Positions 5,939 to 57,271 are shown, counted from the first letter of the stretch. The stretch: DNA of 64,000 nucleotides from Caldisericia bacterium (GCA_963674785.1 OY771555.1:1664001-1728000), one strand, 5' to 3'. The notes: a model not told the origin generated them from the sequence alone. Made by a program: numbers and translations.

Positions 5939-8900
5939 TTACGGCTCCATCTTCAATGTCATCGTAATAGTCTTTGTTGCACCATCCCATCCAACCTCTG
6001 CTCCAAGTGCCTCAGCAATAAACCTAAATGGTAACATTGTAGAACCTGAAACAATCTGAGGTGCTGGACTAACCTTTCTAGATTCATTATTAACCATAGC
6101 ATCCTCAGAGTTTACATAGAGTATAATAGTTGAATCACCAAGAGTAATAATAACAGACTTAGTAGAAGCAACCCATTCAACTTCAGCACCAAATGCCTCA
6201 GATACAGCCCTTACTGGAACCATAGTGCTTCCAGAGATAACTGTTGGAGGAGGATTAATACTTTTATCTTCACCAGATACTGTCATCACATTAGAACCAA
6301 TCTGCATAGTAACAACTAACTCATAAAGGTTTGTAACAGAAATACTTGTCCTTGTCTCATTATCGGACATATCCGTTGCTATCACTTCAAACTCATTGAT
6401 GCTTGGAGCTGCTTCGACTGGGACAGTTGCTATATAGATGTACTCTGATCTATCTTCATCTTCAACAGGATCCTTTATGGTAGGATCTGTTATTTCATCA
6501 GATGGCTCTATCTCATCATTTTCATCAATTGGTTCCTCGACTACCTCATCAGGATCAGTATCTTCAGATTCATCGTCCACGTCTTCTTCCTCGACCGTTT
6601 CCTCATCGGGTTCAGCCAGTGGGTCAATCGCCTCGATTTCACCGACCATCACAACACAAGGTTCGTCAGTTGTTATTCTTATTTCACATTCGGATGCGTT
6701 TACAAGTTCTCCAACTTCAATATCAATAATTTCAGGTGAGACATCATCGGGTGGAGTAACAAAAGTTATTGGGATTTCGATGTGTCCACCTTTTCTCCAA
6801 GACAAAACGACATTTCCATTATAGGTTTTTCCAAGTTTCAGTCCCTCTGTGTTTATGGAAACTGAAAGTTTTTCGTCTTTCATTTTTTCGAGTGTAAACT
6901 CTTCTGGTTTAACTGTTAACCATGGAGCATCTGTGTCTGCAGTTACGTCTACCCATATTGATGCAGTATTGTTTATAAGGATTGAATCTTCAAAATCAAA
7001 CTCTTCATTAAGTCTAAGTTCTTCAAGCTCCAATTCATTTGGACTAGCTTGTGGTCCTTTGGTTTTTACTTTTACCAGAACCTCAGAAGTCCCATATCCC
7101 CAGTCGACACTAATCTTTGTCTGAAGTTCGGCACCCAATGTAAGCTCTGTGCTTTCAAGACTTAAAACCAGCATTCCTGAACCTTTGCTAATCATCTTGA
7201 ATTTATCATGATCAAGAGAAAGCCAACCACATTCGTTTTCAAGTTTGACTGTGATTGGTTTAATAGATTTATTTTGGATTACCAATTCTATCTGTGGGTT
7301 TTCATCAACATCTATTAGACCAAAATCAACTTCTGTTTCGAATTCTGGATCGATTTCAGCAACTACCTCAATGCTAACCGTGGTTTTTACGGTTCCAATA
7401 GTTATGGTTATCTCGCAAGTTCCAACTGCTTTTGCTTCAATTGTTCCATCTTCGGAAACTGTACAGATTTCTTCATCGCTTGATTCAAAAATGAGTTCAG
7501 GATTAGGAATAGTGTAGCCATTTTCATCTTTTACACTTAAATCAAGAGCAAGTGTGTCTTCAATCTCTATTGTTATTTTTTCTTCATCAATTTTAATCTC
7601 AGCAGGATCACCGATTGGTGCACCTTTGAAGTTATAGATTCTTTGAGAGCCTTCACCTTCAGTCATTACCAAAACCCTGCCGTCGGCAATAGCAATATTT
7701 CCGATTGGTTCACCTTTTAATCTGTCATACTTCCAAGTAACATCTCCCATTCTTTCAATATCAAGCCTATAAATGGTAGAAAAATCATCATCTTCATTTG
7801 AAGCCGCAACAAATAGACCTCCATTTGTCACAATGCAGTCTAGCTGTATAGTTCCGCTAAGATGTTTTTTCCATTTTACAACATATTTATCTAGTGATGT
7901 ACAAATCACATCGCCGTCATGTGTTGCAAACATTAGTGCATCCTCAGTTACTGCGAAAGAGCTATATATCTCGGATTTGAACTCAGTCTTCCATACTTCT
8001 TTTTTTGTTTTAATATCAAGGCATGCGATTGTTGAGTTTTCGATTTTTCCATTCTCAAGCTCTTCATCGGTTCTCTTTTTTGCCTTGTTAACAAACAGAT
8101 ATTTTTCGTTCGCGGCTAATCCTCTATACATGTAATCATCTGATTCATTGAGAGACCATTCTTTTTTATTAGTTTTTTTATTCAAGCAAATCGTATCACC
8201 ATTATTGCTTATGATAATGTACTTATCGGTGACTATTGGGTGTGTTTCTAAAACGAATGCATCTTCGTCGGTATATATCAATTCTGCTTCTTTGCTAGAG
8301 GTTGGCATGGCGTATAAAGAGTTTTCAAAGGTGAAGTATATAGTATCATCAAATACTGTCGGTTGAGGTTGGGTATATATTGTGGTAAAGTTGAAGAGAT
8401 CATCGTTGATGATTTCTTCGAAAGTTTTCCTTCCTGTGTCTTGGTTAACGCTGCTTATCCCCTCAGGTGTTCCAAAGTAAATGCTACCATCATGCCTTAC
8501 GATAGAACAATCCTCGGCAAGCTCCTCTTCGGTTGTATTCCACCTTTTCTTAAATGTTTGAAGATTGTGGCAATACAAGTCTTCTCCTCTAAGAACAATC
8601 TTGTTATCGAAGGCATAGACATTCCTAATCTCATCTTTTGTGTTTATCTTCTGCTCCCACTCAAGATCTAAAACAGGTGAAATTGGAGCACATGGACTGT
8701 CAATTGAGTTTGAGTCGTAACTGTCTGAGTTAAGCTCATTCCACCCGTCACATTCTGTGAAATCTCCTTGTGAGCCGTCATCAGGTCTCTTGATATAGGC
8801 GTCAACACTTATATCTTTTGAGTTCCCATCCCATTTAACCGTGATTTTTCCGTATAAGATGTTTTCATCCTTAGGAATTCTATCATAATCAAGTGTAACA

Positions 8901-10333
8901 TTCACAGACATTTTTTTACCGGTATTGATTTTTAATTCGTCTTTTGATAGTTTTATCCATGATTTATTTGCAGAGAGTTCGTATGTTTGTGTTTCCTTTG
9001 AATCATTTTTTATTTCAAGCTTTCTGGTGATTGTCTCTCCCAACTCAATACTACCAAAATCTATAGAGGTTGGATTAATACTTATATTTGGGAGCCCATA
9101 ACACTCTACGCTGTCTGTTGTCGTTACATAAACTTTTCCATCGTAAATTGCTGGTGATGTTGAATAAAGAGCAATTGAGCTTGAAGACCAAAGCTTGTCG
9201 CCAGTTTTTTTGTTGTATACACAGAATTCAAATCCGCTTGTAACATATAAGTAGTCTCCACATATTGATGGAGATGACATCGTGTAGTCTGAAGAATCTT
9301 CCCAAACCAACTCCCCAGTTTCGGCATTTATACACAGAAGTGAAAAATTGCTAAAAAAAGAGAAATCTGCGGCATCTGTGAGTGAGCCCGTTATGACATA
9401 CACATACTTACCATCAGTAGACGGTTTGTTCCAAACCTTTTCATCTGTTTTGTATTCCCATTTATAATCTTTGTCTTTGATATCGTAAGCGTAAAGATTT
9501 TTTTTGTCTGAGCCAACATATAGAACTCCATCGTGATATGTAAGAGATGATCCATAAAGATCTTTGTTTACTTTTTTCCCAGTGTGTGATGATCTTCCTG
9601 TGCTGGCGTCTATGCCCCTAATTTCACCCAACATATCGACGAAATAAAGAGAACCCCCACCCTTTGCCATCGAACATGCGGCAGGAGCATAAGATTGTTT
9701 CCATTTTTTTGTTCCGTTTTTGATAGAATATGAATAGTAGTTTCCGAAGGTGTCGTTAAAGTATGCTGTATCACCATTGCTTAAAGGGGATGCCAAAAGA
9801 AATACACTATCAGCCTTAAGTTTCCAATCAATTTTTCCTGTGGCGGCTTTATAGCAAACTGCATAGCATTTATCATTTATGGAAGACTCTTTCTCAATAT
9901 CTGGAGTGGTTAAATAAAGAACTCTTCCATTATCATAAACTGGAGTTGTATTACTTCCGTATCCAGTTACAAGATCGTCTTCCCAGATAACTTTTCCTGT
10001 ATCTGCATCCAAGCAATATGCATCACCTTTTTTTGAATCCCCATATTTTACTGTAGAAACAAAAACTTTGCCATCAGCGACGATTGGAGAACCAAAACCA
10101 AGATTCTCGTTAAAAGGCGTTGACCAAAGCTTTTTAAACTGCTTGAAGTCATTATCACTTGACGCCAATGGTCCACAGCTTTCATTTATTTCAGATGTTC
10201 TTTCAGGGTTGCAGCCAAACATCGGCCAATCACAAGTGATTTCTTTTGCTGTAGCTTTATTAAAACTGATTCCGCTACCAAAAATGAGCGACAGGACAAG
10301 CAAAAAGCACAAGATCGATTTAACAGGTTTCAT
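5939..10333 (-). CDS. Secreted/surface protein paralogous to 1502-5722 (PQQ propellers, BACON, Big_2, acidic insert, stalk domain)
   Basis: Signal peptide MKPVKSILCF; WPMFGCNPERT propeller start; same domain order as the neighbour; GGAGG SD. Confidence 0.87.
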   Translation of the reverse strand: MKPVKSILCFLLVLSLIFGSGISFNKATAKEITCDWPMFGCNPERTSEINESCGPLASSDNDFKQFKKLWSTPFNENLGFGSPIVADGKVFVSTVKYGDSKKGDAYCLDADTGKVIWEDDLVTGYGSNTTPVYDNGRVLYLTTPDIEKESSINDKCYAVCYKAATGKIDWKLKADSVFLLASPLSNGDTAYFNDTFGNYYSYSIKNGTKKWKQSYAPAACSMAKGGGSLYFVDMLGEIRGIDASTGRSSHTGKKVNKDLYGSSLTYHDGVLYVGSDKKNLYAYDIKDKDYKWEYKTDEKVWNKPSTDGKYVYVITGSLTDAADFSFFSNFSLLCINAETGELVWEDSSDYTMSSPSICGDYLYVTSGFEFCVYNKKTGDKLWSSSSIALYSTSPAIYDGKVYVTTTDSVECYGLPNISINPTSIDFGSIELGETITRKLEIKNDSKETQTYELSANKSWIKLSKDELKINTGKKMSVNVTLDYDRIPKDENILYGKITVKWDGNSKDISVDAYIKRPDDGSQGDFTECDGWNELNSDSYDSNSIDSPCAPISPVLDLEWEQKINTKDEIRNVYAFDNKIVLRGEDLYCHNLQTFKKRWNTTEEELAEDCSIVRHDGSIYFGTPEGISSVNQDTGRKTFEEIINDDLFNFTTIYTQPQPTVFDDTIYFTFENSLYAMPTSSKEAELIYTDEDAFVLETHPIVTDKYIIISNNGDTICLNKKTNKKEWSLNESDDYMYRGLAANEKYLFVNKAKKRTDEELENGKIENSTIACLDIKTKKEVWKTEFKSEIYSSFAVTEDALMFATHDGDVICTSLDKYVVKWKKHLSGTIQLDCIVTNGGLFVAASNEDDDFSTIYRLDIERMGDVTWKYDRLKGEPIGNIAIADGRVLVMTEGEGSQRIYNFKGAPIGDPAEIKIDEEKITIEIEDTLALDLSVKDENGYTIPNPELIFESSDEEICTVSEDGTIEAKAVGTCEITITIGTVKTTVSIEVVAEIDPEFETEVDFGLIDVDENPQIELVIQNKSIKPITVKLENECGWLSLDHDKFKMISKGSGMLVLSLESTELTLGAELQTKISVDWGYGTSEVLVKVKTKGPQASPNELELEELRLNEEFDFEDSILINNTASIWVDVTADTDAPWLTVKPEEFTLEKMKDEKLSVSINTEGLKLGKTYNGNVVLSWRKGGHIEIPITFVTPPDDVSPEIIDIEVGELVNASECEIRITTDEPCVVMVGEIEAIDPLAEPDEETVEEEDVDDESEDTDPDEVVEEPIDENDEIEPSDEITDPTIKDPVEDEDRSEYIYIATVPVEAAPSINEFEVIATDMSDNETRTSISVTNLYELVVTMQIGSNVMTVSGEDKSINPPPTVISGSTMVPVRAVSEAFGAEVEWVASTKSVIITLGDSTIILYVNSEDAMVNNESRKVSPAPQIVSGSTMLPFRFIAEALGAEVGWDGATKTITMTLKMEP
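5940..6424. repeat. Copy 2 of the 485-bp direct repeat
   Basis: Identical to 1503-1987. Confidence 0.93.
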
Positions 10334-10561
10334 AGATTCCTCCGGGATTTTTTGAGACTAAACATATCAGATTTGAAATATCAAAGAATTTCAAACAATA
10401 TTCACTTTTTTGACACCTAATCTAAGACTATTTATCCTCACTGACCTCCAATTGTCTTTAATGGTTTAAATACTACGACTCAATATAAGAAAATCAACCC
10501 AGGTAGATTCAAGTTATTAACAAACTGTAAATTTTTACAAAAAAATTGTTCGAATTGTTAT

Positions 10562-10598
10562 AAAAAAAGCGACCCACATACGCTAAGGGGTCGCTTTT
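10562..10598 (-). terminator. Intrinsic terminator of the rpoB-fusA2-rpoC operon
   Basis: AAAAGCGACCC...GGGTCGCTTTT stem followed by T7 on the minus strand. Confidence 0.85.
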
Positions 10599-10618: not shown

Positions 10619-13600
10619 TTATGAAGCTGGGGTTTCCTCAACTTCCATTATTACCTGTTCATCATCGTTTTCATGTTCTGAGACCACTTCGTATCCAAGG
10701 TAGTCCTCGATACCCGTTCCCGATGGAATCAATTGACCAACAATAATAGCCTCTTTGAGACCATGGATTGGGTCAATCTTTCCTTCTGCGGCTGCTTTGG
10801 AAAGCACCCTTGGAGTTTCCTGGAAACTTGCGGCTGAAAGGAATGAATCTGACGTGATAGCTGATTTTGTTACCCTTTGAAGGACTGGCTCGAATGTTAC
10901 AGGTTTTTTATTCTGGCTTTCAAGCATTCTATTTACTTCTTCGACCTCGAGTTTGTCATGGATTTCCCTTGGAATAAGATCAGAATCACCAGGATCGTTG
11001 ATTTGTACACGCCTCAACAGCTGATGGATGATTATTTCAATATGTTTGTCGTTAATATCCTGACCTTGAGATTTGTAGACCTTCTGAATTGAGGTGATCA
11101 GGTATTTTTGAGTTGCATTCATACCTTTGATCCTAAGAAGTTCATGAGGGTCAACCGGACCATCTGAAAGGTTTTGTCCTGCTTCAATTTCATCACCATC
11201 TGCAACAAGAAGTCTGACAGTGTGTGGAAGCTTATATGTTTTCTTTGTATCATCTTTGCTTGTGATTGTTATGTTCACAATATCCTGTTCTTGTTCAAGA
11301 CTCACAACACCAGAGATATCAGAGATTGGTGCCTCACCTTTTGGTTTTCGGGCTTCAAAGAGCTCCTCAACCCTTGGAAGACCAGATGTAATATCTAATC
11401 CAGCAGCACCACCAGAGTGGAATGTTTTTAGTGTGAGCTGTGTTCCAGGTTCTCCGATTGATTGAGCGGCAACAACGCCAACAGCTTCACCCATATCAAC
11501 AAGGTTTCTTGTTGATAGGTCTCTGCCATAGCATTTTGCACAAACACCCATACCGCTCTTACATGTCATTGGTGATCTTACAACAACGTGTCTTATTCCA
11601 GATTTAACTATTTCTGTGACAGCCTTTTCATCAATAATTTCGTTGTAAGGAACAACGACTTCTGCTTTGCCATTTGCAACATTGATCTCTGTGTATCCGA
11701 GGGCTTTTGCTTTCTTAAGAGTTGTTGCAGAAATCTTGCTTCCAGCCTCGTAAATCACCTCATCACGATTCATGATGTCCTGGGCAAGTGTGTCGCCGAC
11801 GATTTTTTTGTCATCAACTGAATGAGTTTTGAACTTCCAAACTTTTATATCTTCGGCAGCAGTTCTACCAAGGATTCTCTCATCGAGTTCTTCTACTATA
11901 GAATTTTCATCATATAGAGGTGTAAGTGTGATTCCTGTGATTGAGTCAACAACAACTGCTTCTTTTACACCCGCATCATCCAATTCCATAGCTTTTTTAT
12001 ACGTAATCTTTTTCCCGGCTTTGACGATTACTTCGCCAGTTAATGGGTCGTTTATATCTTCGTGAGCCTTCTTACCAACGGCCTGAATTGAGATTGGTTT
12101 GATAACTTTGCCTGCAACTATGATTGGTTTGATAACACTTTCTGTGCAATCTCTTTCTCTGATGATGACATCATGAGATACATCAACAAGTCTTCTTGTG
12201 AGGTACCCAGCATCAGAGGTTCTAAGAGCTGTGTCAGCAAGTCCCTTTCTTGTTCCTGATGTTGAGATGAAATATTCGAGAATATCGAGACCCTCTTTGA
12301 AGTTCGATTTGATTGGGAACTCAATAATCTTATTTGTTGGGTCAGCCATCAGACCTTTCATTCCACAGAGCTGACTGAGCTGTCCGGGGCTTCCACGAGC
12401 GCCGGATGTAACCATCATGTGAATTGGGTCGCCATCTTTGAAGTAAGTAGAAACCTTCTCTTTAATATCATCGGAAGCATCACGCCAAAGATCAACTACA
12501 CTTTGGTATCTTTCATCTTCTGAGATGAGTCCCTGTTCGTAGTATTCAAAAATTGAGTCGATTTTTTTCTCATTGGCTTTGATGATCTCGTCTCTTGCGG
12601 GAGGGATTACTAGATCAGAAACGCTCATTGAAATTCCGCCAGCAGTTGCCCACTCGAAACCTGTTTCCTTGATTTTATCAAGCAAAACTGCGGTAACAGC
12701 AGAACCATTGAGCCTGAAGCACTCAAGAATCTGACTCCTAAGATTATTTTTTGTCATGGATTCATTGTAGTAGGGTAGATTCCATTTTCCTGTGTATGAG
12801 TCATCGTTTGCCTGTCGGTAGACTCGACCCCTGTGAGCAACAGTAGGTTCAAGGGCTTCTCTGATGATTCCGTTGTAAAGCGCTTGTCCAACTGATGTTG
12901 TAATTGTGGTGCCGTTTCTGTCTGTTACTTCGTAGAGTTTTCCGTTTTCTCTGTAAGATTCACCGTATGGAATTCTGAATTTGATTCCATCTCGAAGCTT
13001 GAAATATCCGTGGTTATAGGCGTTATTGATTTCGTAGAAGTTGTTATAGATTTTTTCATCTGGCTCGGTGGTTGGACCCATTGTAAGATAGTAAGAGCCG
13101 AGAATAATATCTTCCTGAGGCATCATGACGGGGTTACCAGATGCTGGTGAAAGAATGGATCTTGAAGAAAGCATTAGAACCCTTGTTTCCATCTGGGCAG
13201 AAAGTGTTAGAGGAACATGAACAGCCATCTGGTCACCGTCAAAGTCGGCGTTGAAAGGGTCACAGACAAGAGGTGGGATCTGGATAGCTTTTCCTTCGCA
13301 AAGGATTGGGTCGAATGCTTCGATTCCGAGTCTGTGAAGTGTTGGAGCACGGTTGAGTAGAACTGGATGACCTTTTACAACTTCTGAAAGAATCCTGTAA
13401 ACCTCAGGATTTCTTTGTTCAACCATCGATCTGGCTTGTCTTAAGCTCTGTGTTAAACCACTTCTTACGAGTCCTTCCATCACGAAAGGTTTGAAAAGCT
13501 CAAGAGCCATTTCCTTAGGGATGCCGCACTGGTCAATCTCGAGTCTCGGATTAACAACGATTACAGAACGACCTGAGTAGTCAACACGTTTTCCAAGGAG

Positions 13601-14572
13601 GTTCTGTCTAAATCGACCTTCTTTTCCTTTGAGGGTATCAGAAAGTGATTTAAGTGGTCTGTTTGCTGTACCAAGGATTGGTCTATCTCTTTTTGAGTTG
13701 TCAAAGAGTGCGTCAACTGATTCCTGAAGCATTCGTTTTTCATTCTGAATCATGATGTCAGGAGCTTTGACTTCCATGAGCTTTTTGAGTCTTGTATTTC
13801 TGTTGATAACTCTCTGGTAAAGATCATTAAGGTCGGCGGTTGCAAATCTTCCACCATCAAGCTGAAGAAGTGGTCTGAGGTCTGGTGGGATTACAGGGAT
13901 AACATCAAGTATCATGTTTGTTGGTGTACGATTTGTATCCTTAAACGCTTTGATAACCTTGAGTCTTTTGATTGCTTTGGCTTTTTTCTGTTTTGAGGTT
14001 TCTTCAAGAACTAAAAGAAGTTCCTCTTCAAGTTTGTCAAGATCGATTTCTGAAAGAAGATCGATGATTGCCTCAGCACCTTTTTTTGCAACAAAATCAT
14101 ATTGCCTACTGTACTCACGGTATTCTTCATCTGTGAGAAGTTGCATCTTCTTAAGTGGTGCATCCATTGGGTCAACAACGACATAATTGATGAAGTAAGC
14201 AATCTTTGTGAGGACTTTGCTGGTAACGTTCAAAAGAAGTGCGATATAATGAACTGTTTTGAGATACCATGTGTGAACAACAGGTGCTGCTAGCTCGATA
14301 TGTCCAAAGCGTTCACGTCGGACTTTGTTGATTGTTACCTCAACACCACATCTATCACAGATGACGCCCTTATATCTGGCACCCTTAAATTTACCACAGC
14401 GACATTCATAATCTCTCTGTGGTCCAAAAATCTTTTCACAGAAGAGTCCGTCTGGCTCTGGCTTGAAGTTTCTGTAAGAGATGGTCTCTGATTTTTTGAC
14501 CTCTCCATGACTCCAAGACCTAATCTCTTCTGGTGAGGCAAGCAGTATCCTTACTGCTGTGTTTTTCTCCAC
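10619..14572 (-). CDS. rpoC: DNA-directed RNA polymerase subunit beta-prime
   Basis: GTG start with GGAAGGGAG SD; CxCGK..CDRC zinc finger, NADFDGD catalytic motif, GRFRQNLLGKRVDYSGR, SIGEPGTQLT trigger loop. Confidence 0.99.
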   Translation of the reverse strand: MEKNTAVRILLASPEEIRSWSHGEVKKSETISYRNFKPEPDGLFCEKIFGPQRDYECRCGKFKGARYKGVICDRCGVEVTINKVRRERFGHIELAAPVVHTWYLKTVHYIALLLNVTSKVLTKIAYFINYVVVDPMDAPLKKMQLLTDEEYREYSRQYDFVAKKGAEAIIDLLSEIDLDKLEEELLLVLEETSKQKKAKAIKRLKVIKAFKDTNRTPTNMILDVIPVIPPDLRPLLQLDGGRFATADLNDLYQRVINRNTRLKKLMEVKAPDIMIQNEKRMLQESVDALFDNSKRDRPILGTANRPLKSLSDTLKGKEGRFRQNLLGKRVDYSGRSVIVVNPRLEIDQCGIPKEMALELFKPFVMEGLVRSGLTQSLRQARSMVEQRNPEVYRILSEVVKGHPVLLNRAPTLHRLGIEAFDPILCEGKAIQIPPLVCDPFNADFDGDQMAVHVPLTLSAQMETRVLMLSSRSILSPASGNPVMMPQEDIILGSYYLTMGPTTEPDEKIYNNFYEINNAYNHGYFKLRDGIKFRIPYGESYRENGKLYEVTDRNGTTITTSVGQALYNGIIREALEPTVAHRGRVYRQANDDSYTGKWNLPYYNESMTKNNLRSQILECFRLNGSAVTAVLLDKIKETGFEWATAGGISMSVSDLVIPPARDEIIKANEKKIDSIFEYYEQGLISEDERYQSVVDLWRDASDDIKEKVSTYFKDGDPIHMMVTSGARGSPGQLSQLCGMKGLMADPTNKIIEFPIKSNFKEGLDILEYFISTSGTRKGLADTALRTSDAGYLTRRLVDVSHDVIIRERDCTESVIKPIIVAGKVIKPISIQAVGKKAHEDINDPLTGEVIVKAGKKITYKKAMELDDAGVKEAVVVDSITGITLTPLYDENSIVEELDERILGRTAAEDIKVWKFKTHSVDDKKIVGDTLAQDIMNRDEVIYEAGSKISATTLKKAKALGYTEINVANGKAEVVVPYNEIIDEKAVTEIVKSGIRHVVVRSPMTCKSGMGVCAKCYGRDLSTRNLVDMGEAVGVVAAQSIGEPGTQLTLKTFHSGGAAGLDITSGLPRVEELFEARKPKGEAPISDISGVVSLEQEQDIVNITITSKDDTKKTYKLPHTVRLLVADGDEIEAGQNLSDGPVDPHELLRIKGMNATQKYLITSIQKVYKSQGQDINDKHIEIIIHQLLRRVQINDPGDSDLIPREIHDKLEVEEVNRMLESQNKKPVTFEPVLQRVTKSAITSDSFLSAASFQETPRVLSKAAAEGKIDPIHGLKEAIIVGQLIPSGTGIEDYLGYEVVSEHENDDEQVIMEVEETPAS

Positions 14573-14587
14573 GAGATACTCCCTTCC

Positions 14588-16672
14588 TTATGCCTGGTTC
14601 TCTTTTTCAAGTTTTGCTTTTGCGATGACTTCTTCAGAAAGTTTTGGAGGAGCAATTTCGTAGTGATCAAATTCCATGAAGAATGAGCCACGTCCACCTG
14701 TGATCTGGTTGAGGTCGATTGCATATCTCTGAACCTCATAAAGAGGTGCTTCAGCGCTGATGACCTGTGTTCCTGCTGAAACTTCAGAACCAAGAATTCT
14801 TCCTCTCTTTGAGGAAATATCACCCATGATATCACCCATGTACTGATCTGGGACTGTGATTGTCATCTTGTAGATTGGCTCAAGGATAACAACGGTTGAT
14901 TCTTCCATTGCTTTTCTATAGGCAAGGTTTGCAGCCATTTTGAATGCCATTTCTGATGAGTCAACGGCGTGGTATGAACCATCATCAACGTTTACGTGAA
15001 TATCAACAACTGGGAATCCAGCGAGTCTACCTTCAAGGATTGCTTCTCTCCAGCCCTTCTCGATTGCAGGAAGGTAGTTTTTTGGAATTGATCCACCAAA
15101 GATTGTTTCTGTGAACTTGAAACCTTCGCCTCTTGGCAATGGTTTAACTTCACACCAGCAATCACCAAACTGACCATGTCCACCTGTCTGTTTTTTGTGT
15201 CTTCCCTGAACTCTGACAGGTTTTGTGATTGTCTCTCTGTATGGGATTTTTGGAATCTCAAGACCAATGTTTACACCGAATTTTTCAGAAAGTTTCTGAA
15301 CAGATGCCTGAAGATGGGCTTCTCCAAGTCCGCCAAGGAGGGACTCTCTGGTGTCCTCTGTTCTTCTGTAGGAGAGACTTGGGTCTTCTTCGATGAGTTT
15401 CTTGATTGCAGTACCAATTTTGTCTTCGTCTGATTTGGTTTTTGCCTTCATACTCATCTCAAGAACTGGTCTTGGGAAGTCGATTTCTTCAATTTTGATT
15501 GAATTGGCTTTATCGGCAAGTGTGTCGTTTGTAAGGGTAACTGCAAGTTTTGTCAAAACACCAATGTCGCCTGCTGCAACAAAGTCAACTGCTTCCTGTT
15601 TTTTGCCAAATGGAACACCGATAGCACTGATTCTCTCTGGCTTATCTTTGTTAATGTTTATTGGTTTTGCATTTGAGTCCATTTTGCCAGTTACAACTTT
15701 GTAGTAACTAACTCTTCCAACAAATGGGTCTGCTGATGTTTTAAAGACAAGTGATGAAAGAGGTTTTCCTTCATCGTATGCAACTTCAATTTCTTTACCT
15801 GAGGTGTCTGTTGCTTTTTCTGCTGGTCTTGCGTCTGCTGATGGAAGAAGATTTACCACACCATCAAGAATGTTTGTGACACCGATATTGTTTGTGCTTG
15901 ATGCAGCAAAAATAGGATACACGAGTCCATCTTTAATGGCTTTATTTAAAGCAGAAATAAGCTGTTCTGGTGAAGGTTCTTTGTCTTCAAGATATGCTTC
16001 CATAAGTGCTTCGTCTGTCTCGACAACAACCTCAACAAGACTTGCATAATATTCATCACGTTTGGAAACGAGGTCTGCTGGGATGTCTTCGGCTTTCATT
16101 TTCTTGCCGTTGTCTGTGAATGTGTAGGCTTTTCCGGACACTACATCGATAACACCTTTGAAGTTCTCAGCCTCACCCCATGGGAATGTGAGAACCAGTG
16201 CTGATTTTGAAAGATTCTCTGTGATTCCTTCAAGAGCCTCGTCAAAGCTAGCATTTTCTCTATCCATTTTGTTGACGACAATAAATCTTGGAAGATTTCT
16301 GTCTTCACAGAGTTTCCACATCTTTTCAGTTCCAACCTGAACTCCGCCAAGAACGTCAACAAAAATCATTGCTGAATCTGCTGCTCTGATTCCTGAAAGA
16401 GCCTCGCCAAGAAAGTCAAAGAAACCGGGAGTGTCAATAATGTTGATCTTTGTGTTTTTGTGGACAACTGGAGCAACGGTCATGTTGATTGAAATGCCTC
16501 TTTTGATTTCCTCTGGATCAAAATCTGAAATCGTGTTTCCAGATGCGGTTGATCCCATTTTATCAATGGCACCAGAATTAAAAGCAGCTGCTTCAATCCA
16601 TGTTGTTTTACCGGCTCCACCGTGTGAGCAAAGCACTACGTTTCTAATGTCTTTTGTTTCAAATGTCTTCAT
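14588..16672 (-). CDS. fusA: Elongation factor G paralog (EF-G2 / EFG II type)
   Basis: Five-domain EF-G; G1 SHGGAGKTT (not AHIDAGKTT), effector RGISI (not RGITI), switch II DTPGF (not DTPGH), NKMD, HKKQTGGHGQFG, GSYHAVDSSEMAF. Confidence 0.95.
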   Translation of the reverse strand: MKTFETKDIRNVVLCSHGGAGKTTWIEAAAFNSGAIDKMGSTASGNTISDFDPEEIKRGISINMTVAPVVHKNTKINIIDTPGFFDFLGEALSGIRAADSAMIFVDVLGGVQVGTEKMWKLCEDRNLPRFIVVNKMDRENASFDEALEGITENLSKSALVLTFPWGEAENFKGVIDVVSGKAYTFTDNGKKMKAEDIPADLVSKRDEYYASLVEVVVETDEALMEAYLEDKEPSPEQLISALNKAIKDGLVYPIFAASSTNNIGVTNILDGVVNLLPSADARPAEKATDTSGKEIEVAYDEGKPLSSLVFKTSADPFVGRVSYYKVVTGKMDSNAKPININKDKPERISAIGVPFGKKQEAVDFVAAGDIGVLTKLAVTLTNDTLADKANSIKIEEIDFPRPVLEMSMKAKTKSDEDKIGTAIKKLIEEDPSLSYRRTEDTRESLLGGLGEAHLQASVQKLSEKFGVNIGLEIPKIPYRETITKPVRVQGRHKKQTGGHGQFGDCWCEVKPLPRGEGFKFTETIFGGSIPKNYLPAIEKGWREAILEGRLAGFPVVDIHVNVDDGSYHAVDSSEMAFKMAANLAYRKAMEESTVVILEPIYKMTITVPDQYMGDIMGDISSKRGRILGSEVSAGTQVISAEAPLYEVQRYAIDLNQITGGRGSFFMEFDHYEIAPPKLSEEVIAKAKLEKENQA

Positions 16673-16690
16673 ATAAAATTCCTTCCTTGG

Positions 16691-19600
16691 CTATTCGTTC
16701 TTATCCATTATGCTTTCGAGTTCTTCCTCGAAATCAAGTGTTTCTGCTGTTGGTACATCCATCTCATCACTATCCATGAGACCTTCTCCGTCAGGAAGTT
16801 CAACAATCATCTGAGGCTCATCGGATTTTTGCATCTCTTGAGTATCGATATGGTGTAGGTCAATACAGAGTCCTTTAAGTTCTCTCTGAATAACCTTGAA
16901 TGATTCAGGTGTTCCTGATTCTGGGATTGGTTTACCTCGACAGATTGCTTCGTATGCCTTAATTCTTCCTTCAGTATCGTCAGATTTAAGGGTAAGCATT
17001 TCTTTAAGAGTATGTGCTGCTCCGTATGCCTGAAGTGCCCAAACTTCCATTTCACCAAGTCTCTGTCCACCAAATTGAGCTTTTCCGCCCAATGGCTGTT
17101 GAGTGATAAGAGCATATGGACCAGTTGACCTTGCGTGGATTTTGTCTTCAACAAGATGGTCAAGTTTCAAAATATATGCGTAACCAACGGTTACTCTCTG
17201 ATGGAATGCTTCACCTGTATATCCATCATAGAGTGTCATTTTGCCATCAGTTGGAAGCCCCGCTTTTTCAAGAGTATCAAATACATCCTGCTCAGATGCT
17301 CCATAGAAAACTGGTGTTGCAAAATACACACCGAGTTTTTTTGCAGCAAAGCCGAGGTTTGTTTCGTAGACCTGTCCGAGATTCATTCGGGAGTGGACAC
17401 CAAGTGGTGAAAGGATGATGTCGACGGGAGTTCCATCTTCCATGTATGGCATGTCATATCTTGGTAGAATTTTTGAGATAACACCCTTGTTTCCGTGTCT
17501 ACCTGACATCTTATCGCCGACCTGGATTTTTCTCTTTTGGGCAACATAAACTTTTGCCTGCATGTTGACACCCACCGGAAGCTCATCAGATTTCTCGCGT
17601 TTGTAAAGCTGTGTATCAATTACGATTCCGGTTTCACCTGGGTCAACTCGTTTTGAAGAGTCTCTGACATCTTGTCCTTTTCTGTCAAACATCGCACGCC
17701 AAAGCTTCATCTCCGGAGTAAACTCTGATTCAGCCTTTGGGGTTACTTTTCCAACAAGAATGTCGCCTGGTCCAACTTCAGTACCAATTCTGATAATTCC
17801 ACGATCATCAAGATTTTTCAGAAGTTCTTCAGAGACATTTGGAATCTCTCGTGTGAGTTCCTCTGGACCAACCTTGGTATCCCTTACCTGATGTTTGTAT
17901 TCTTTGATATGTATTGAGGTGTATACATCATCATAAACTAGTCTTTCATTAATGATGATAGCATCAAGATAGTTGAAACCTCTCCACGGAAGATATGCAA
18001 CGAGAACGTTCTGACCGATTGCAAGATCGCCTCTGTCGCATGCCTGACCATCAATGATTACATCACCGGCTGATACAAAGTCACCCTTTCTTACGAGTGA
18101 ATGCTGGTTGATACAGATATCCTGGTTTGATCTGAAGAATTTCTGGAGTGAATATGTGCTTTCATGTGAGACCTTAAGCTCGTCAACACCCGATCCTGCG
18201 AGCTTTTTAAGGAGATCCATTGTAAGATAAGAGCCTTGATATGCGATGACCTCATCGCCTTCTTCAATATCTTCGGCAAGAATTCTTGATGATTCGAGAA
18301 GATGTCCGTCAAATACAAACACATCATTTTCCTCAAGGGACATGATGTCAACAATTCTTATTGTCTCTACATCATTTGTCAAAAGCTGTCTGATTACATC
18401 TTCAGTTAGAAATGAAGAGTCGATCTGTTCGTAGGTTTTTGATTCTTTTGCATCTGGGAGAAGAATCTTACCAAGGAAACTACTCTTTTTTGCGCCTATC
18501 TTAAGACTAGATACAGGAAGAACTTCTGTTGAATCCTCAAGGTGTACTGAAACCTCATTAATATTTGCTTTGAAAAGCTTTTCAAGCCCCGCTTTGGTGA
18601 GTTTCTTCTCTGCTGCGATGACTGTTTTTCCAGTTGAATCAAGTGCTGGTTCTGCAAGCTTAAGACCAATTAGATTAATGTTCTTCTCAATACTAACAAA
18701 TTCCTGTAGGTTTATTGTTTCAACGTCGTCACGTCTGATTGTTCTTACTTTGAAATGGTTTTCCTGGACAAGCTTTCTTGCAACCGATCCATCAATAAGT
18801 TCACCGATTCTGCCAATTCCTTCGATATCTTCGCCAAGGAATCTATACAGGATGTCGCGGTTTACTGTACCAAGCTGGAAATTCTCAGGAGGAGCGTCAA
18901 GTGATGCAATCTTAATTGTTCCAGCATCGACGTATGAGACAACTCCGGATTCCTTTGCAAGAACAACTGAGCAGTTATCCACAACAATCCTGTGTTCCAT
19001 TCCAGTTCCAACTCTTGGTGCCTCTGGCTGAATAAGTGGAACAGCCTGATGCTGCTGGTTACATCCCATAAGAGCCCTTTTTGCGTCGTTATGTTCAAGG
19101 AACGGAATCAACGATGCAGCAACAGAGAAAACCTGGTTTGGTGAGATGTCAATATAATCAATCTCTTTACCAGGTATTTCTGAGAATGATGATTTGTATC
19201 TGGTTATGTTTTCACCAATGATTTCTTCGTCTTTGGTAAGCTCGGTGTTGGCCTGAGCGATTTTGAAGGTTTCTTCGTCATCGGCAAGAATATAATCGGA
19301 TTCATTTCCAACAATGCCATCTTTTACCCTAAGGTATGGAGCCTGAATAAAACCATATCTATCAATAATTGCATATGTTGCAAGGGAGTTGATAAGTCCA
19401 ACGTTTCCACCTTCTGGGGTTTCGATTGGACAGATTCTACTGTAGTGTGAGTTGTGGACGTCTCTAACATCAGCACCGGCGCGTTCTCTGTTGAGTCCGC
19501 CTGGCCCAAGTGATGAGAGTTTTCTTTTGTGTGTGATTTCTGCAACAGGGTTTGTTTGATCCATGAACTGTGAAAGCTGTCCAAGTCCAAAGAATTCTTT

Positions 19601-20890
19601 GATTGCGACAGTTATAGGTCTGACATTAATGATATTCTGAACAGTGAGGTCTTCATCAGGTAATGTGATGATCTTTTCCCTGACGATCTTGAGCATCCTG
19701 AGGAAACCAATACGAAGTTTATTGGAAAGTAGCTCACCAACCGATCGGACTCTCTTGTTTGCAAGATGATCCTTATTGTCAGGGTCAACGTTTCTTAGAT
19801 GGAGCTGATAGAGGTGATGAAGAATAGCACGGATATCTTCAAGAGTTACGAGGTTTGAATCAAGGTTTAGACCAAGCTTCTTGTTGATTTTGAATCTACC
19901 AACATCTGAAAGATTATTTCTTCTTGGATCCCTTAAGAATGTGTGGATGAGGTTCTCAGCATTTTCTGTAGTTGGACGTTCACCTGGTCTGATATGCTTA
20001 AACATATCAATAAGGGCTTCTTCACGTGTTTTTGTTTGATCCGCTTCGAGTGTGTGAACAATAAAGTCTGCAATGTCTGTATCGTTATAATGAATGTTTT
20101 CAATATCCAAACGTTTAATTTCATCGACGATGATTGGTGTGAGAGTTGTTCCTTCTGGGTAGAGATCGTGTCCTGTTGTAGGATGGAGAATCATTTCTGC
20201 AAGAGTTTTGCCTTGCACTCTCTGAAGCATATCTTTGTCAGCTACGTTTGCAGTGACAACAATTTCTTCGATAAAAAGCTCTTTGATTTCATCATCGGTG
20301 TAATCACCCATGACTCTCAAAAGCTCAGTGACAGGGAATTTTTTGGATTTCTTGTCAATTTTAACGTAGGCGATCTTATCATCATCCATCTCGAATTCGA
20401 GCCACGAACCACGATCAGGAATGACAGTTGCCATAGCTTTCGGTCTAACTGATGTGTGGATTTTTTCGTACTCAAAATAAACTCCTGGAGCTCTGACAAG
20501 CTGAGAAACAACAACCCTTTCAACGCCATTAACAATGAAGGTTCCTGCTTCTGTCATCTGGGGAAGCTCACCACAGAAAAGCTCCTGCTCCTTAATTTCA
20601 CCAGTTTCCTTGTTGATAAGTCGAACGGTTAATTTAAGGGGTACAGTAAATGTTAAATTTCTAGCTTTACATTCGAGTGGAGTGTGAGTTGGACTGCCAA
20701 GACTATAATCAACAAATTCAACCTCAACTTTTCCTGATTCACGAAGTGATCGATCCTGATTAAGTGACTCGATAAGGAAACGTAAATCCTCATCAAGAAA
20801 TCGCTGATACGAGTCGAGTTGAATGTTAATAAGATTTGGCGGTTCGCTCTTTGGTCTACGTTTGCTAAACCAAACCCGGTCTATTCTCAT
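16691..20890 (-). CDS. rpoB: DNA-directed RNA polymerase subunit beta
   Basis: GTFIVNGVERVVVSQL, QLSQFMDQ, CPIETPEG, GDKMSGRHGNKG, GGQRLGEMEVWAL motifs. Confidence 0.99.
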   Translation of the reverse strand: MRIDRVWFSKRRPKSEPPNLINIQLDSYQRFLDEDLRFLIESLNQDRSLRESGKVEVEFVDYSLGSPTHTPLECKARNLTFTVPLKLTVRLINKETGEIKEQELFCGELPQMTEAGTFIVNGVERVVVSQLVRAPGVYFEYEKIHTSVRPKAMATVIPDRGSWLEFEMDDDKIAYVKIDKKSKKFPVTELLRVMGDYTDDEIKELFIEEIVVTANVADKDMLQRVQGKTLAEMILHPTTGHDLYPEGTTLTPIIVDEIKRLDIENIHYNDTDIADFIVHTLEADQTKTREEALIDMFKHIRPGERPTTENAENLIHTFLRDPRRNNLSDVGRFKINKKLGLNLDSNLVTLEDIRAILHHLYQLHLRNVDPDNKDHLANKRVRSVGELLSNKLRIGFLRMLKIVREKIITLPDEDLTVQNIINVRPITVAIKEFFGLGQLSQFMDQTNPVAEITHKRKLSSLGPGGLNRERAGADVRDVHNSHYSRICPIETPEGGNVGLINSLATYAIIDRYGFIQAPYLRVKDGIVGNESDYILADDEETFKIAQANTELTKDEEIIGENITRYKSSFSEIPGKEIDYIDISPNQVFSVAASLIPFLEHNDAKRALMGCNQQHQAVPLIQPEAPRVGTGMEHRIVVDNCSVVLAKESGVVSYVDAGTIKIASLDAPPENFQLGTVNRDILYRFLGEDIEGIGRIGELIDGSVARKLVQENHFKVRTIRRDDVETINLQEFVSIEKNINLIGLKLAEPALDSTGKTVIAAEKKLTKAGLEKLFKANINEVSVHLEDSTEVLPVSSLKIGAKKSSFLGKILLPDAKESKTYEQIDSSFLTEDVIRQLLTNDVETIRIVDIMSLEENDVFVFDGHLLESSRILAEDIEEGDEVIAYQGSYLTMDLLKKLAGSGVDELKVSHESTYSLQKFFRSNQDICINQHSLVRKGDFVSAGDVIIDGQACDRGDLAIGQNVLVAYLPWRGFNYLDAIIINERLVYDDVYTSIHIKEYKHQVRDTKVGPEELTREIPNVSEELLKNLDDRGIIRIGTEVGPGDILVGKVTPKAESEFTPEMKLWRAMFDRKGQDVRDSSKRVDPGETGIVIDTQLYKREKSDELPVGVNMQAKVYVAQKRKIQVGDKMSGRHGNKGVISKILPRYDMPYMEDGTPVDIILSPLGVHSRMNLGQVYETNLGFAAKKLGVYFATPVFYGASEQDVFDTLEKAGLPTDGKMTLYDGYTGEAFHQRVTVGYAYILKLDHLVEDKIHARSTGPYALITQQPLGGKAQFGGQRLGEMEVWALQAYGAAHTLKEMLTLKSDDTEGRIKAYEAICRGKPIPESGTPESFKVIQRELKGLCIDLHHIDTQEMQKSDEPQMIVELPDGEGLMDSDEMDVPTAETLDFEEELESIMDKNE

Positions 20891-20965
20891 AAGACTCCCT
20901 TTCCATGCCTATAGCCTCTCTAGAGCATAGCCATAGCAATTGCTGGGCATTATAATCGAATAGCA

Positions 20966-20994
20966 ATATTAATAGACCCAGCACACGGAGTCAA
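20966..20994 (-). promoter_or_regulatory. Putative sigma70/SigA promoter of rpoB
   Basis: TTGACT-N17-TAATAT about 75 nt upstream of the rpoB ATG. Confidence 0.55.
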
Positions 20995-21078: not shown

Positions 21079-24000
21079 TCAAGGCATCCAAATTCTAGCT
21101 ATAGTAATCTCGCCAGTAACAGCATTTGTTGTAATTTCGCAATCGAATACTTGCTCAACTATTTCAGGTGATATGAAAAGCATGCCATTTTCGATTGTTG
21201 GTGTTGATGGAAGTGTTATTGATTCACCCGAAACAAGACCATCTCTACTTCCGTTTTCAAAAACATATTTGTTTCCAAAAAGGTTAACTTCACATATTCC
21301 AAGGGACTCAATAACCTTATATTCAGCACCAAAAAGGGATTCAAAGATAGAAATGGGAAGTTTATTCACACTTGTTACTGGATTTCTAAGTTGACCAATT
21401 GGTAACCCTTCACTATCAACAATACTTGCCTCACCAACAATAAGTTTACCCCATATCCTCTTATAAACAGGGATAATCATTGTTTTTTCAGTGATATTTC
21501 CAGCAGCATCTATTACATTGAACTTGATTTCATTCTTACCTGGGATCAACTGAACATCAACTGAGAACATATCGTAAACAACCTTTGCAGGTTGCCCATT
21601 CGCGGTGACAACACAATTTGGTTCAACTCTTCCTTTAAGGGTAAATGTCTGTTTTCCAATAAGTTCTGGCAGTTTTGGTAGAAGAATCTCAGGAGGAATT
21701 GCATCAACGGAAATTGTAACAACCTTTGAGGTTGGTGGAAGATTTCCAACAGTTGAGATGATGTTGATAGTATTTATTCCATCAACAAGAGTAACAGATG
21801 TTTCGAATCTTCCAGTTGATGAAACTGTGACTTTTGTACCATTGATTCTAAGGTCTGCTCCTGGCGTAGTTTCTCCGCTGATTTTTGTTGTGTAAGAGTT
21901 TGTTATTGTTCTCACCTCGTCGATAATTAGATGCGGAGGTGTAGTCTGTGGACCAGGTCTTAGAGAAAGGTCTCCAGAAACATAACCACCTGCAGTTGCG
22001 GTGACAATAAGCTTGGTGTCTTTTTCGGGCACAAATGTAAACTCGATATCTCCAGTAACGTTTGTTGTTCCATCAAGGTCTATTTCTCCACCCTGGATTC
22101 TAACTCTTGCATTTTCAACCAATGCTCCAGTTGAGATATCGACAATTTTAAGTTTAACAGTATTTTCTACACTTTCGGTGATCGTCTCTGGCTCAACAAG
22201 TTTGATCTGCAAACCTGGTGAGGAGTCAAATGAGCTTATTGGATAAATTGAGTAATATTGTGGGGAATCTGCAAGTGTTAGGTTGTATGGTTCAGCATTC
22301 AACCATGTATTTGGGCATTTGTATCCAAGATAGATAACCTCTTCACCATGTCCTGTTGGTGTAAGTGTCATATAGGTAACTGGATGGATGTTGTTGTCCA
22401 ACATAACAAACCCACCCTGAGAAAGCTCATTATGGTTTGCGCCACTTGCGATAATTGATGACCCTTGTTCCATAGGAAGATCTCTGTCATCGGCGGGATG
22501 AAGTTCAATGAGGAGTGGGTTATCAACACCATATGCGAGGTCAAATGATGCAGGGTCAAATAGTTCTGAACTCAGAGGTTTGCCTGTTCTTGCAGATTTG
22601 AGAGTGATTTTTGGTGCTGCAACTTTGAGAAGATTTCCTGACATTGCATCCCAGTCAAGGAAGAATGTTCCATCTCTGCTACCCATATCTGAGCCTGCAA
22701 GAGCATATCCAGTTGTGAAATACTTGTATCTTGTCCCAATAAAGCCTGGGTCTGTATAGTATGGGAGTGGTGCACCAGCGACATCACCAAACTTTGTGCT
22801 TGCTGAGTACGGGTTACATCCTACAAGTCCACCAATCAGACAAACATCTTCTGCAAAAATTGTAAACGAGCATGATCCGAGTTCATCAAGAGGCAGATAG
22901 TCATGGAAGTTAATCAAACCGTCTTTGTGTCTGTCTGCAAACAGATATGTTCCTTCGTAAGGATGGTTGTATATAGCGCCAAGTCCCCATCCCTTTGTTG
23001 TTGTATCCATATCTGTATCAACCATTATCAATGGTTTTCTGGAGAATGTGTTATCTGAGTAGTGTTCATTTGTCGTGGTATAATAAACGGTTGTACCCTG
23101 TCTTACGACATCAGCCGATAGGGTCTCATCGTTCCAGGTGAAGTATTCACGTTTAGTTTTTGCTCCACCAAACAAGAAGATTTCATCATTACCGCTTTGA
23201 ATAACTCCATCCTCATTTGTGTCAAACCCAACATGGACTCCGTAGTTTATTTCACATTCATTGCAAGGGAACCATTGCCTTGGTTTCTGATTTGCAGGGA
23301 CATTAATAAACGGCATAAAGTGAGCTGGATAATTAATGTATTCATTACAAACGCTCATACCTTCAGGCTGTTGAGCGATCAAGGCGCCCTGTGAATTTCT
23401 GCAGGTTGCTGTTATGTTATAAATTCTATTTGATCCCGCTGTAAGAAGGAAGTCTGGTTCAGCAGGCGACATGAATACTTTTTGTTCTGGATCTTGGATG
23501 TTGACGACACTATATTCGACATCAGGTAAGGCAAATTTGACCTTTGTTGTTCCGATATTTCTCCTGTCAGGAGTATAGACTGTTAAGTCAAATTCGCCGG
23601 CATCATTTGCGCAGAATCCTGTAATCTTATAGATACCTTCTTTTGCTCCTGAAAAGTCAACATCGATAGGTTGGAATGCTTGATCTTCCCAATCACTGAA
23701 GAGATAAACATTCTGATGCAAATCAAGTGATAAATTATGAAGGTCAGTTCTTACCCAATAATACTGAGGTAATCTTGCCCCTTTTCCATAGAAAGCTTCT
23801 TGATCAGGATGCCAATCTTTAAAGAGATGTTCAAGTGCCTGGTCTTCTTCTACCTCTCTGTCGCCAAGAACGTCTGGTACCCCTTCGAGTAGGTTTACAG
23901 GATCGCCGAAAGAGTCGGTTACCTTAACTGTCAGTGGTTCAGTTGGACTGACAAGCTCATTAACAACACCTGCTGTAAGAGGTTGAGGAGAAATCTCAAT

Positions 24001-29238: not shown

Positions 29239-29290
29239 ATTTCCGTCCAATACTCTATATACCATAATAAAACAGTCAAGTGAGCAAAGC

Positions 29291-29746
29291 TCACCTGGTC
29301 GCACCTGATAGAATTCTATTAACTTCTTTCAGATGTTTAATCACCTCTTGTGTATTTTTTTCATCCAAATGCTTAACGGATTCAAAGATAGTATCCATCA
29401 TGATATTTTCTCGATATTTTGCCTTTTCGATACCCTTTTCTGTTAAATAAATAATCTTTTTTCTTCTATCTGTTTTTTCGCTCTTTATTACTACGAAATC
29501 ATTTTCGGATAAAAACTCAACAATTGCTGTCATTGTACTCTTCCGAACATCCATAAGTTTTCCAAGCTCAGAGGGAGTCATCGGTCCCTTGTGATTTAGA
29601 ATAAAGAGTGTCCTTACAATATTCTTCTTCTCTCGGTCATTTTGATCTCGACCAAGTTTCCTAAAACCCTTACCCAGATGGTGATTCAGATTGAGTTTCA
29701 TATTGATCAACTCATCATGGAGCAGTTTTAAATTCTTTCTATCCAA
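29291..29746 (-). CDS. MarR family transcriptional regulator
   Basis: GPMTPSELGKLMDVRKSTMTAIVEFL HTH and DRRKKIIYLTEKG wing; TTG start with GGAG SD. Confidence 0.92.
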   Translation of the reverse strand: MDRKNLKLLHDELINMKLNLNHHLGKGFRKLGRDQNDREKKNIVRTLFILNHKGPMTPSELGKLMDVRKSTMTAIVEFLSENDFVVIKSEKTDRRKKIIYLTEKGIEKAKYRENIMMDTIFESVKHLDEKNTQEVIKHLKEVNRILSGATR

Positions 29747-54319: not shown

Positions 54320-54377
54320 TTTGACCATCCTTTCCGCCAACGGGAAACGGAAAAGTGTGATATTAGTTTATCACATA

Positions 54378-54487
54378 CCTTCTTTCATCCGGACTATAAC
54401 CGTCGGTTCAGGACTTACACCTGATCAACAGAGAATCTCTGCTCGCGGACTTTACCGCCGATAGGGAATTTCACCCAACCCCGAAGG
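54378..54487 (-). ncRNA. FMN riboswitch (RFN element)
   Basis: CCUUCGGGGUUGGGUGAAAUUCCCUAUCGGCGGUAAAGUCCGCGAGC...GAUCAGGUGUAAGUCCUGAACCGACGGUUAUAGUCCGGAUGAAAGAAGG matches the RFN consensus. Confidence 0.96.
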
Positions 54488-54496
54488 CTGTGGAGG

Positions 54497-57056: not shown

Positions 57057-57077
57057 TTCATCCTCCTCGGGATTATT

Positions 57078-57214
57078 CCACAAATGGTATCCTGACTTCA
57101 CAGTTTCACATCACAACTCGATAACCTTCCCAGTTTCCCAGTGGTTACCGACAATTCACTGCTTACAGTGGCGGGACCGTATCAGATTTTCACTGATTTC
57201 CCATATGCTTGTGG
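57078..57214 (-). ncRNA. Cobalamin riboswitch
   Basis: GGGAA, P4 UCAGUGAAAAUCUGA, CGGUCCCGCCACUGUAA, CCACUGGGAAACUGGGAAGG, B12 box AGUCAGGAUACC; P1 CCACAAG/UUUGUGG. Confidence 0.93.
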
Positions 57215-57221
57215 TGAGGAT

Positions 57222-57271
57222 GTTTTACACCAAACAAACAAACTTGTCAATGATTTCGAAAACAATATTAT
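57222..57271. promoter_or_regulatory. Divergent promoters sharing a -35 element (btuFCD and radA)
   Basis: Minus strand TTGACA(57250-57245)-N17-TAAAAC; plus strand TTGTCA(57244-57249)-N16-TATTAT, then 7 nt to the radA ATG. Confidence 0.55.

Follow-up and report, generated by a model that had tools for sequence, protein, structure and literature searches.

How does a gene for a translation factor come to stand between rpoB and rpoC, what kind of factor does it encode, and does its position tie it to RNA polymerase (RNAP)? rpoB and rpoC are the most tightly linked gene pair of the bacterial chromosome; they are normally adjacent or fused, typically downstream of rplKAJL and near rpsL-rpsG-fusA-tuf. 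In a 64,000-nucleotide stretch of a Caldisericia bacterium genome (GCA_963674785.1 OY771555.1:1664001-1728000; this whole stretch is called the window below) their contact is broken by a 2085-nt gene for a paralog of elongation factor G (EF-G), so that rpoC does not directly follow rpoB as in canonical rpoBC. We find this order throughout one class of Caldisericota. The paralog itself is, as judged from its sequence, a member of the known and widespread EF-G2/EFG II-type family. Hence, the protein family is already known, and the operon position is a lineage trait for which we found no description in the literature; the paper on the EFG II subfamily (PMC3150367) mentions neither rpoB nor rpoC. 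New are the phylum-wide count, the finding that the sister class has rpoB and rpoC side by side and the orthologous paralog at another place, a tree that supports a single origin, the survey of the gene junctions and a family-specific shift in codon bias and conservation.

The three genes lie on the minus strand of the window. The open reading frame (ORF) of rpoB (16691..20890, 1399 aa), the beta subunit gene, is identified by Pfam and NCBIfam models (TIGR02013, 1475 bits) and is followed by an 18-nt junction (16673..16690) with a Shine-Dalgarno-like GGAAGGA. Then come the EF-G2/EFG II-type paralog (14588..16672, 694 aa), identified by its five EF-G domains, motifs and NCBIfam matches, and a 15-nt junction (14573..14587) with GGAAGGGAG ahead of the GTG start of rpoC (10619..14572, 1317 aa; TIGR02386, 1546 bits), which encodes the beta' subunit. 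A single sigma-70-like promoter candidate, TTGACT-17 nt-TAATAT (20966..20994, minus strand, consensus match 9/12), is placed in the 188-nt gap upstream of rpoB. Downstream of rpoC there is a single strong intrinsic terminator on the same strand, a GCGACCC...GGGUCGC hairpin with a following U-run (~10560..10598, -18.2 kcal/mol, z -4.0), and only 1 of 200 shuffled sequences folds equally well. Both junctions are shorter than any hairpin would need, and the terminator-like matches on the minus strand within the operon are weak, with 3 G-C pairs, and located in coding sequence. The gene order with its two Shine-Dalgarno gaps, the one promoter, the one terminator and the lack of an internal hairpin are thus as the first-pass annotation of this DNA described them.

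The window belongs to a 2.23-Mb genome in one contig (G000, where it is C1:1664001-1728000). Profile models searched across the whole genome find one copy of rpoB and one of rpoC, and since they match no other locus, the operon encodes the only core RNA polymerase of the cell. This refutes the earlier idea of an alternative module with a second RNAP and a second EF-G. A second full-length EF-G gene is found ~280 kb away (G000:C1:1394140-1396221), with a product 36% identical to the paralog over the match at 1394152-1396191. It is the canonical fusA, for which the first-pass annotation had advised a search: it lies within rpsL-rpsG-fusA-tuf, carries the motifs AHIDAGKT, RGITI, DTPGH and NKMD and scores 908.8 bits on the EF-G equivalog model TIGR00484.

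Some further observations concern the str operon. The canonical fusA of one relative (G013) was flagged as broken, with one TAA inside, and this was rejected, as the TAA closes an intact ORF of 693 aa; a candidate internal TAA is flagged by the genome search in the fusA of another (G055). A second full-length tuf is located outside the window (G000:C1:1497998-1499203), with codon adaptation as high as that of the str-operon tuf, and in many relatives the contig breaks off immediately behind fusA, which a duplicated tuf would lead one to expect.

Is the order a property of this genome or of its lineage? Our sample of the phylum comprises 93 Caldisericota genomes, including that of the window, from 7 families and 24 genera; families f1-f6 form the class of the window, f1 being its own family, and f7 (9 genomes) is the second, sister class. 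The 3' end of rpoB and the 5' end of rpoC flank the paralog in 29/29 loci from 40 relatives. When the coordinates of the paralog are compared with those of the rpoC 5' end, 71 of the class's 83 other genomes have the paralog immediately ahead of rpoC and 0 are contrary (f1 10/10, f2 16/23, f3 7/9, f4 25/26, f5 11/13, f6 2/2). The remaining 12 are undeterminable, with contig breaks or missing genes, and none of them has rpoB adjoining rpoC. The survey of Caldisericota proposed in the first-pass annotation thus returns a class-wide trait, and the two doubts raised there, that the arrangement might be misassembled or unique to this genome, are both dispelled. An assembly artefact, or a component of a second RNAP/EF-G expression module, is hardly credible: the one contig of the genome carries a single rpoB and a single rpoC, and the order of the 29 loci of relatives recurs in L038, L056 and L087, three public contigs that were named independently. 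Two apparent variants were rejected. The EF-G2-rpoC fusion suggested by an open frame of 1987 aa in G038 and G080 consists of separate ORFs, with a TAG at the end of the paralog, and the split paralog of G006 reflects a stretch of N in its sequence record.

In the sister class the genes are arranged otherwise. The paralog and rpoC are on different contigs in 7 of the 9 genomes, and in the two genomes opened (loci L134 and L178) rpoB overlaps rpoC, rpsL-rpsG-fusA comes next and the paralog is elsewhere. Outside the phylum we surveyed the paralog family with one genome per species and a 21-sequence alignment as the query, and consider the best 80 of at least 597 matching stretches. Among these, 77 are from Bacillota, Acidobacteriota, Thermodesulfobacteriota, Chloroflexota, Actinomycetota and Nitrospirota; none of the 77 loci has the order rpoB-paralog-rpoC, and all lie far from rpoBC. 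A maximum likelihood tree of 107 sequences (IQ-TREE quick search, LG+G4) joins the Caldisericota paralogs in one clade, with a support of 99 in the Shimodaira-Hasegawa-like approximate likelihood ratio test (SH-aLRT). Two f7 paralogs branch outside the 25 relocated ones (SH-aLRT 89), and the families are recovered within. The simplest reading of this pattern is that the class ancestor acquired the order through one relocation of a resident paralog to the gap between rpoB and rpoC, with vertical descent since then.

The surroundings of the trio preserve parts of the canonical clusters. One family (f3) retains nusG-rplKAJL upstream, and f2, f4, f5 and f6 retain rpsL-rpsG-fusA downstream of rpoC, so that the two EF-G genes are 7 kb apart; what differs from the canonical rplKAJL-rpoBC cluster is the 2.1-kb paralog gene that splits rpoB from rpoC. 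In f1 both linkages are lost. The stand-alone tricistronic operon of the first-pass annotation therefore holds for the family of the window, but not for the other families, where the trio still has rplKAJL before it or rpsL-rpsG-fusA after it. The identities between families are low for rpoB (43-53%) and similar for the paralog (40-51%) and fusA (49-60%), which dates the arrangement far back and puts purifying selection on the paralog in the range of that on core genes.

Several side observations were made on these loci. In two genera of the sister class (L135 3509-8938 and L136 7154-14095) the paralog stands beside a gene for an MntR/DtxR-like metal regulator; in L135 (G084) the adjacent transporter fits the FeoB model, and its counterpart in L136 (G086) is an ORF of 673 aa. 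The frames round the rpoC 5' end measure 1484-1841 aa in G087, G088 and G090 of this class, against 1245-1255 aa in its other genomes, and may represent an insertion or a long upstream open frame. As for rpoB, residues ~670-908 of the beta subunit of the window are outside the coverage of the rpoB model, and the subunit is ~1390-1424 aa long in f1, f2, f4, f5 and f6, compared with 1141 aa (f3) and 1172-1177 aa (sister class), which points to a putative lineage-specific insertion of roughly 220-250 aa.

What kind of EF-G is the paralog? Its fold is plain, as all five Pfam domains of EF-G are present (GTP_EFTU, EF-G_D2, EFG_III, EFG_IV and EFG_C). The first-pass annotation assigned it to the non-canonical EF-G2 type, and the motifs on which this was based read identically here: P-loop SHGGAGKTTW, switch I RGISI and G3 DTPGF, without the catalytic His, to which we add G4 NKMD. 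Its best NCBIfam model is NF009381 (EF-G subfamily PRK12740.1-5), with 870.3 bits against a cut-off of 583, a model that does not discriminate, because canonical fusA passes it too with 762 bits. The paralog fails the canonical equivalog TIGR00484 (622.6 bits, cut-off 659.4). In the tree, 100 paralog rows split from 7 canonical rows with SH-aLRT 100, the experimentally named EFG II sequences not being among the 107.

The motif states are class-wide. In 30/30 class orthologs F, Y, A or S stands in place of the G3 His, and likewise in 30/30 the switch I Thr is changed to Ser, as in RGISI of the window. The same loss extends over the survey: 73 of the 77 stretches from other phyla are full-length and alignable, and among these best matches 0/73 have the G3 His (Y in 29, F in 21, D in 12, L in 8, and Q, M and E in 1 each). 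Hence, members of this widespread paralog family normally have no catalytic His, and the locus is not peculiar in that respect. The first position of the P-loop is S, G or A and the last L, W, I or F in the class, and other phyla have mostly G...L; G4, NKMD in the window, is SRMD in 4 of the 25 rows from the class. Two stretches of domain IV, GGHGQ.G and DGSYH.VDSSE, are invariant in the 21-sequence class alignment. These loops are the ones that reach the decoding centre, and their invariance points to a probable action in the ribosomal A site.

The paralog agrees in most respects with the EFG II subfamily. It coexists with a str-operon EFG I gene, and its place within the rpoBC operon is what sets the Caldisericia gene apart. 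The accessible part of the EFG II paper (Margus, Remm and Tenson 2011, PMC3150367) gives the P-loop as GhxxxGKT, with Gly16 first and Leu25 last in 1WDT, and presents the subgroups as very divergent from one another. Shared with that account are G2 x-x-x-S-x, G3 DxPG and G4 NKxD in the window paralog, a hydrophobic residue, mostly Leu, after GKT-x in most class members, and a wide distribution with clades following phyla; the first P-loop residue of the window paralog is Ser and not Gly, and the last is Trp and not Leu. The Mycobacterium smegmatis EF-G2, as far as the available excerpt reports it (bioRxiv 10.64898/2026.05.25.727771), is also similar in that an aromatic residue, Tyr98, takes the place of the catalytic His, as Phe or Tyr does here, and in its altered P-loop. 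Unlike the window paralog, which retains NKMD, it has lost NKxD and the G5 residues and is described as stress-specific. According to the same excerpt, this protein with its His-to-Tyr change has no ribosome-dependent GTPase, and the substitution H88Y nearly abolishes the GTPase of EF-G1.

How the paralog is made can be read, in part, from the junctions. In 35 loci the rpoB-to-paralog junction spans -29 to +26 nt, with frequent ATGA and TAATG overlaps, and the paralog-to-rpoC junction spans 9-78 nt with a GGAGG-type site. Overlaps and short spacers with Shine-Dalgarno sites fit the anatomy of co-transcription and translational coupling, and the paralog is probably made together with RNA polymerase. 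In five f5 loci (L020, L022, L023, L025 and L137) the paralog-to-rpoC spacer is longer, 36-44 nt, and has a conserved AAGGGGGTTCTCGTTTTG at its end ahead of the rpoC start.

Codon usage adds a signal in the family of the window. The codon adaptation index (CAI) was calculated against 22 ribosomal-protein and tuf ORFs of the window's genome and ranked over its 1290 ORFs of at least 200 aa. With 0.763 the paralog is at rank 12, compared with 0.797 for tuf, 0.672 for rpoB, 0.645 for rpoC and 0.618 for canonical fusA (79th percentile). The CAI behaves as a proxy of expression, since the other top ORFs are GroEL, subunits of pyruvate:ferredoxin oxidoreductase, both tuf copies, glutamate dehydrogenase and enzymes of the butyrate pathway, together with peroxiredoxin, solute-binding proteins and giant surface proteins. 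The order paralog > rpoB/rpoC > fusA is repeated in three further f1 genomes of other genera or species, and the paralog-minus-fusA difference is +0.145 in G000, +0.128 in G002, +0.068 in G004 and +0.122 in G007. Conservation shifts in f1, too: of the 6 pairs within the family, 5 have the paralog level with fusA or ahead of it, and outside the family fusA leads by 0-13 points. The codon bias and the shift in conservation suggest that in f1 the paralog may be an abundant, constitutive factor. As a side observation, several giant ORFs of ~3000 aa elsewhere in G000, none itself annotated, are among those with the strongest codon bias.

Such an expression would differ from that of the Bacteroides EF-G2. 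Bacteroides thetaiotaomicron likewise has a second EF-G, fusA2, beside an essential fusA; there it is starvation-induced, whereas the Caldisericia paralog is wired into a housekeeping operon. Bacteroides EF-G2 reportedly lacks GTPase activity, as stated in a paper's title (Han et al. 2023, EMBO J). The accessible part of the study of its regulation describes fusA2 as nearly silent in growth and 238-fold induced by carbon limitation from its own regulated promoter, with a 10-fold fall of fusA (mBio 2020, PMC6989115), and Bacteroides EF-G2 is summarised as a slow translocase in the excerpt on the mycobacterial protein (bioRxiv 10.64898/2026.05.25.727771).

We suggest, with moderate confidence, that the paralog is a ribosome- and GTP-binding factor of the EF-G2 type with impaired hydrolysis, which translocates slowly beside canonical EF-G and is made from the rpoBC transcript in step with RNA polymerase. 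After its single move into the spacer, inherited ever since in this one class, the gene would be transcribed from the rpoB promoter and translationally coupled to beta upstream, with the start of beta' close behind. Given this proposed transcription and coupling, its synthesis would be constitutive and matched to that of RNA polymerase, unlike the starvation-driven Bacteroides EF-G2, and in f1 its expression appears to be high. The protein would act on the ribosome and not on RNA polymerase: the nucleotide-binding motifs and the decoding-site loops of domain IV are kept, and the catalytic His is missing. Most likely it would bind GTP and then promote a slow translocation, independent of GTP hydrolysis or poor in it, beside canonical EF-G.

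A number of points weigh against this proposal. The paralog is under the cut-off of the EF-G2 equivalog NF009377 (616.9 against 890 bits; canonical fusA has 466.5) and of the Bacteroides EF-G2 model NF058620 (563.9 against 1000 bits). In a phmmer search against the PDB it matches canonical Thermus thermophilus EF-G with 569 bits, above the 473 bits of T. thermophilus EF-G-2 (1wdt), and the Bacteroides EF-G2 chain (7uvp) with only 445 bits. Its P-loop, S-HGGAGKTT-W, has Ser and Trp where the subfamily consensus is Gly and Leu. T. thermophilus EF-G-2 is reported to hydrolyse GTP in the excerpt cited (bioRxiv 10.64898/2026.05.25.727771), so the missing His is no proof of missing hydrolysis across the family. 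Weak promoter-like and terminator-like matches occur within the genes of the operon, so that internal signals may exist. The codon-bias signal is limited to f1: in f2-f7 the paralog-minus-fusA difference is -0.019 to +0.032, values that are uninformative because ribosomal-protein and other genes share nearly the same codon usage there. Last but not least, it is from sequence features that we infer the co-transcription, the expression level and the biochemical activity of the paralog.

The alternatives differ in what they make of the altered GTPase and of the position. The paralog might be no translocase at all, but a ribosome-binding factor of the stress, protection or hibernation type that is merely expressed from the rpoBC operon. 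The M. smegmatis EF-G2, with the same His-to-Tyr change, has neither ribosome-dependent GTPase nor recycling activity and is described as stress-specific in the available excerpt (bioRxiv 10.64898/2026.05.25.727771), and retention of NKMD and of a GKT P-loop distinguishes the window paralog from it. For a stress factor, a growth-linked housekeeping operon and very high codon adaptation would be unexpected. The loops of domain IV are invariant, and we find this explanation doubtful. The opposite view makes the paralog of f1 the main constitutive translocase and the str-operon fusA the secondary one, with energy-saving translation without GTP hydrolysis in a slow-growing anaerobe. It draws on the codon adaptation above fusA in all four f1 genomes compared and on the conservation in f1, as well as on the terminal branch of the G000 fusA, the longest of the 7 canonical sequences (0.61 against 0.20-0.39). 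It is unlikely nevertheless: canonical fusA retains its catalytic motifs, its str-operon position and an intact frame, codon bias is a proxy only, and no genome of the phylum is shown to be without fusA, though no genome-by-genome count of fusA was made (three genomes with no EF-G match at E 1e-100 are 74-75% complete). We give about as little credence to a broader version, which would apply to the whole class and most clearly to f1. Here a hydrolysis-impaired EF-G2 would be no stress back-up but a constitutive, abundant factor hard-wired to the synthesis of RNA polymerase, and it may carry much of routine translocation at a lower cost of energy or match the pace of the ribosome to that of RNA polymerase.

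The position itself raises the question whether the paralog works with RNA polymerase, physically or functionally. It would then bridge the polymerase and the lead ribosome, or rescue ribosomes that stall behind the polymerase, and its place would have been selected for joint assembly with beta and beta'. The first-pass annotation leaned to such a dedicated role in transcription-translation coupling or rescue, partly on the ground of the atypical GTPase motifs. Its place was kept though rpoB is only 43-53% identical between families, the outer flanks were rearranged several times while the trio stayed, and overlaps of start and stop codons with rpoB are frequent. Yet the relocated paralogs, aligned with those of the sister class and of other phyla, show no class-specific insertion, deletion or fixed residue, which speaks against the dedicated role. 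The odd GTPase motifs are likewise uninformative on RNA polymerase, since they are family traits shared by paralogs of other phyla that are nowhere near rpoBC, as are 77 of the best 80 stretches. Nor does the persistence of the order require a partner: selection for the co-expression of rpoB and rpoC and an independent need for the paralog explain it, and any useful passenger would be expected to stay for long, given that its removal without harm to the expression of rpoC would take a precise deletion. With nusG also present in the class, we consider a partnership with RNA polymerase very unlikely, and keep to the proposed slow, hydrolysis-impaired translocase that would act on the ribosome.

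The surroundings of the operon in the window are of a different kind. As the first-pass annotation stated and the domain scan confirms, genes for surface-type proteins lie on both flanks, at 5939-10333 (minus strand; 1464 aa, PQQ/BamB-like propellers and Cu_amine_oxidN1 in Pfam) and at 21079-29304 (minus strand; 2741 aa, Glucodextran_B and Cu_amine_oxidN1); Cu_amine_oxidN1 domains terminate both of these giant proteins. A scan at the Rfam gathering threshold gives no match in or around the operon, and no tRNA is found near it. Farther off in the window two riboswitches, both on the minus strand, exceed the Rfam gathering score, an FMN riboswitch (54373-54492, 110 bits) and a cobalamin riboswitch (57068-57260, 65.9 bits), and a 616-aa translational GTPase of the LepA/TypA kind (40999-42432, minus strand) is known only from weak matches to EF-G models.

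EF-G2-type paralogs are widespread and have been studied in few species, where they are linked to starvation or stress. In this class of Caldisericota an EF-G2 is under housekeeping control, between rpoB and rpoC, and has been retained class-wide, and in one family its codon usage resembles that of the most abundant proteins. The rpoB-rpoC junction is thus able to accept and fix a large passenger gene, and the lineage provides a natural experiment on how a hydrolysis-impaired translocase behaves if permanently expressed. If it is true that the paralog carries bulk translocation, this would bear on the amount of GTP hydrolysis by EF-G that low-energy life requires.

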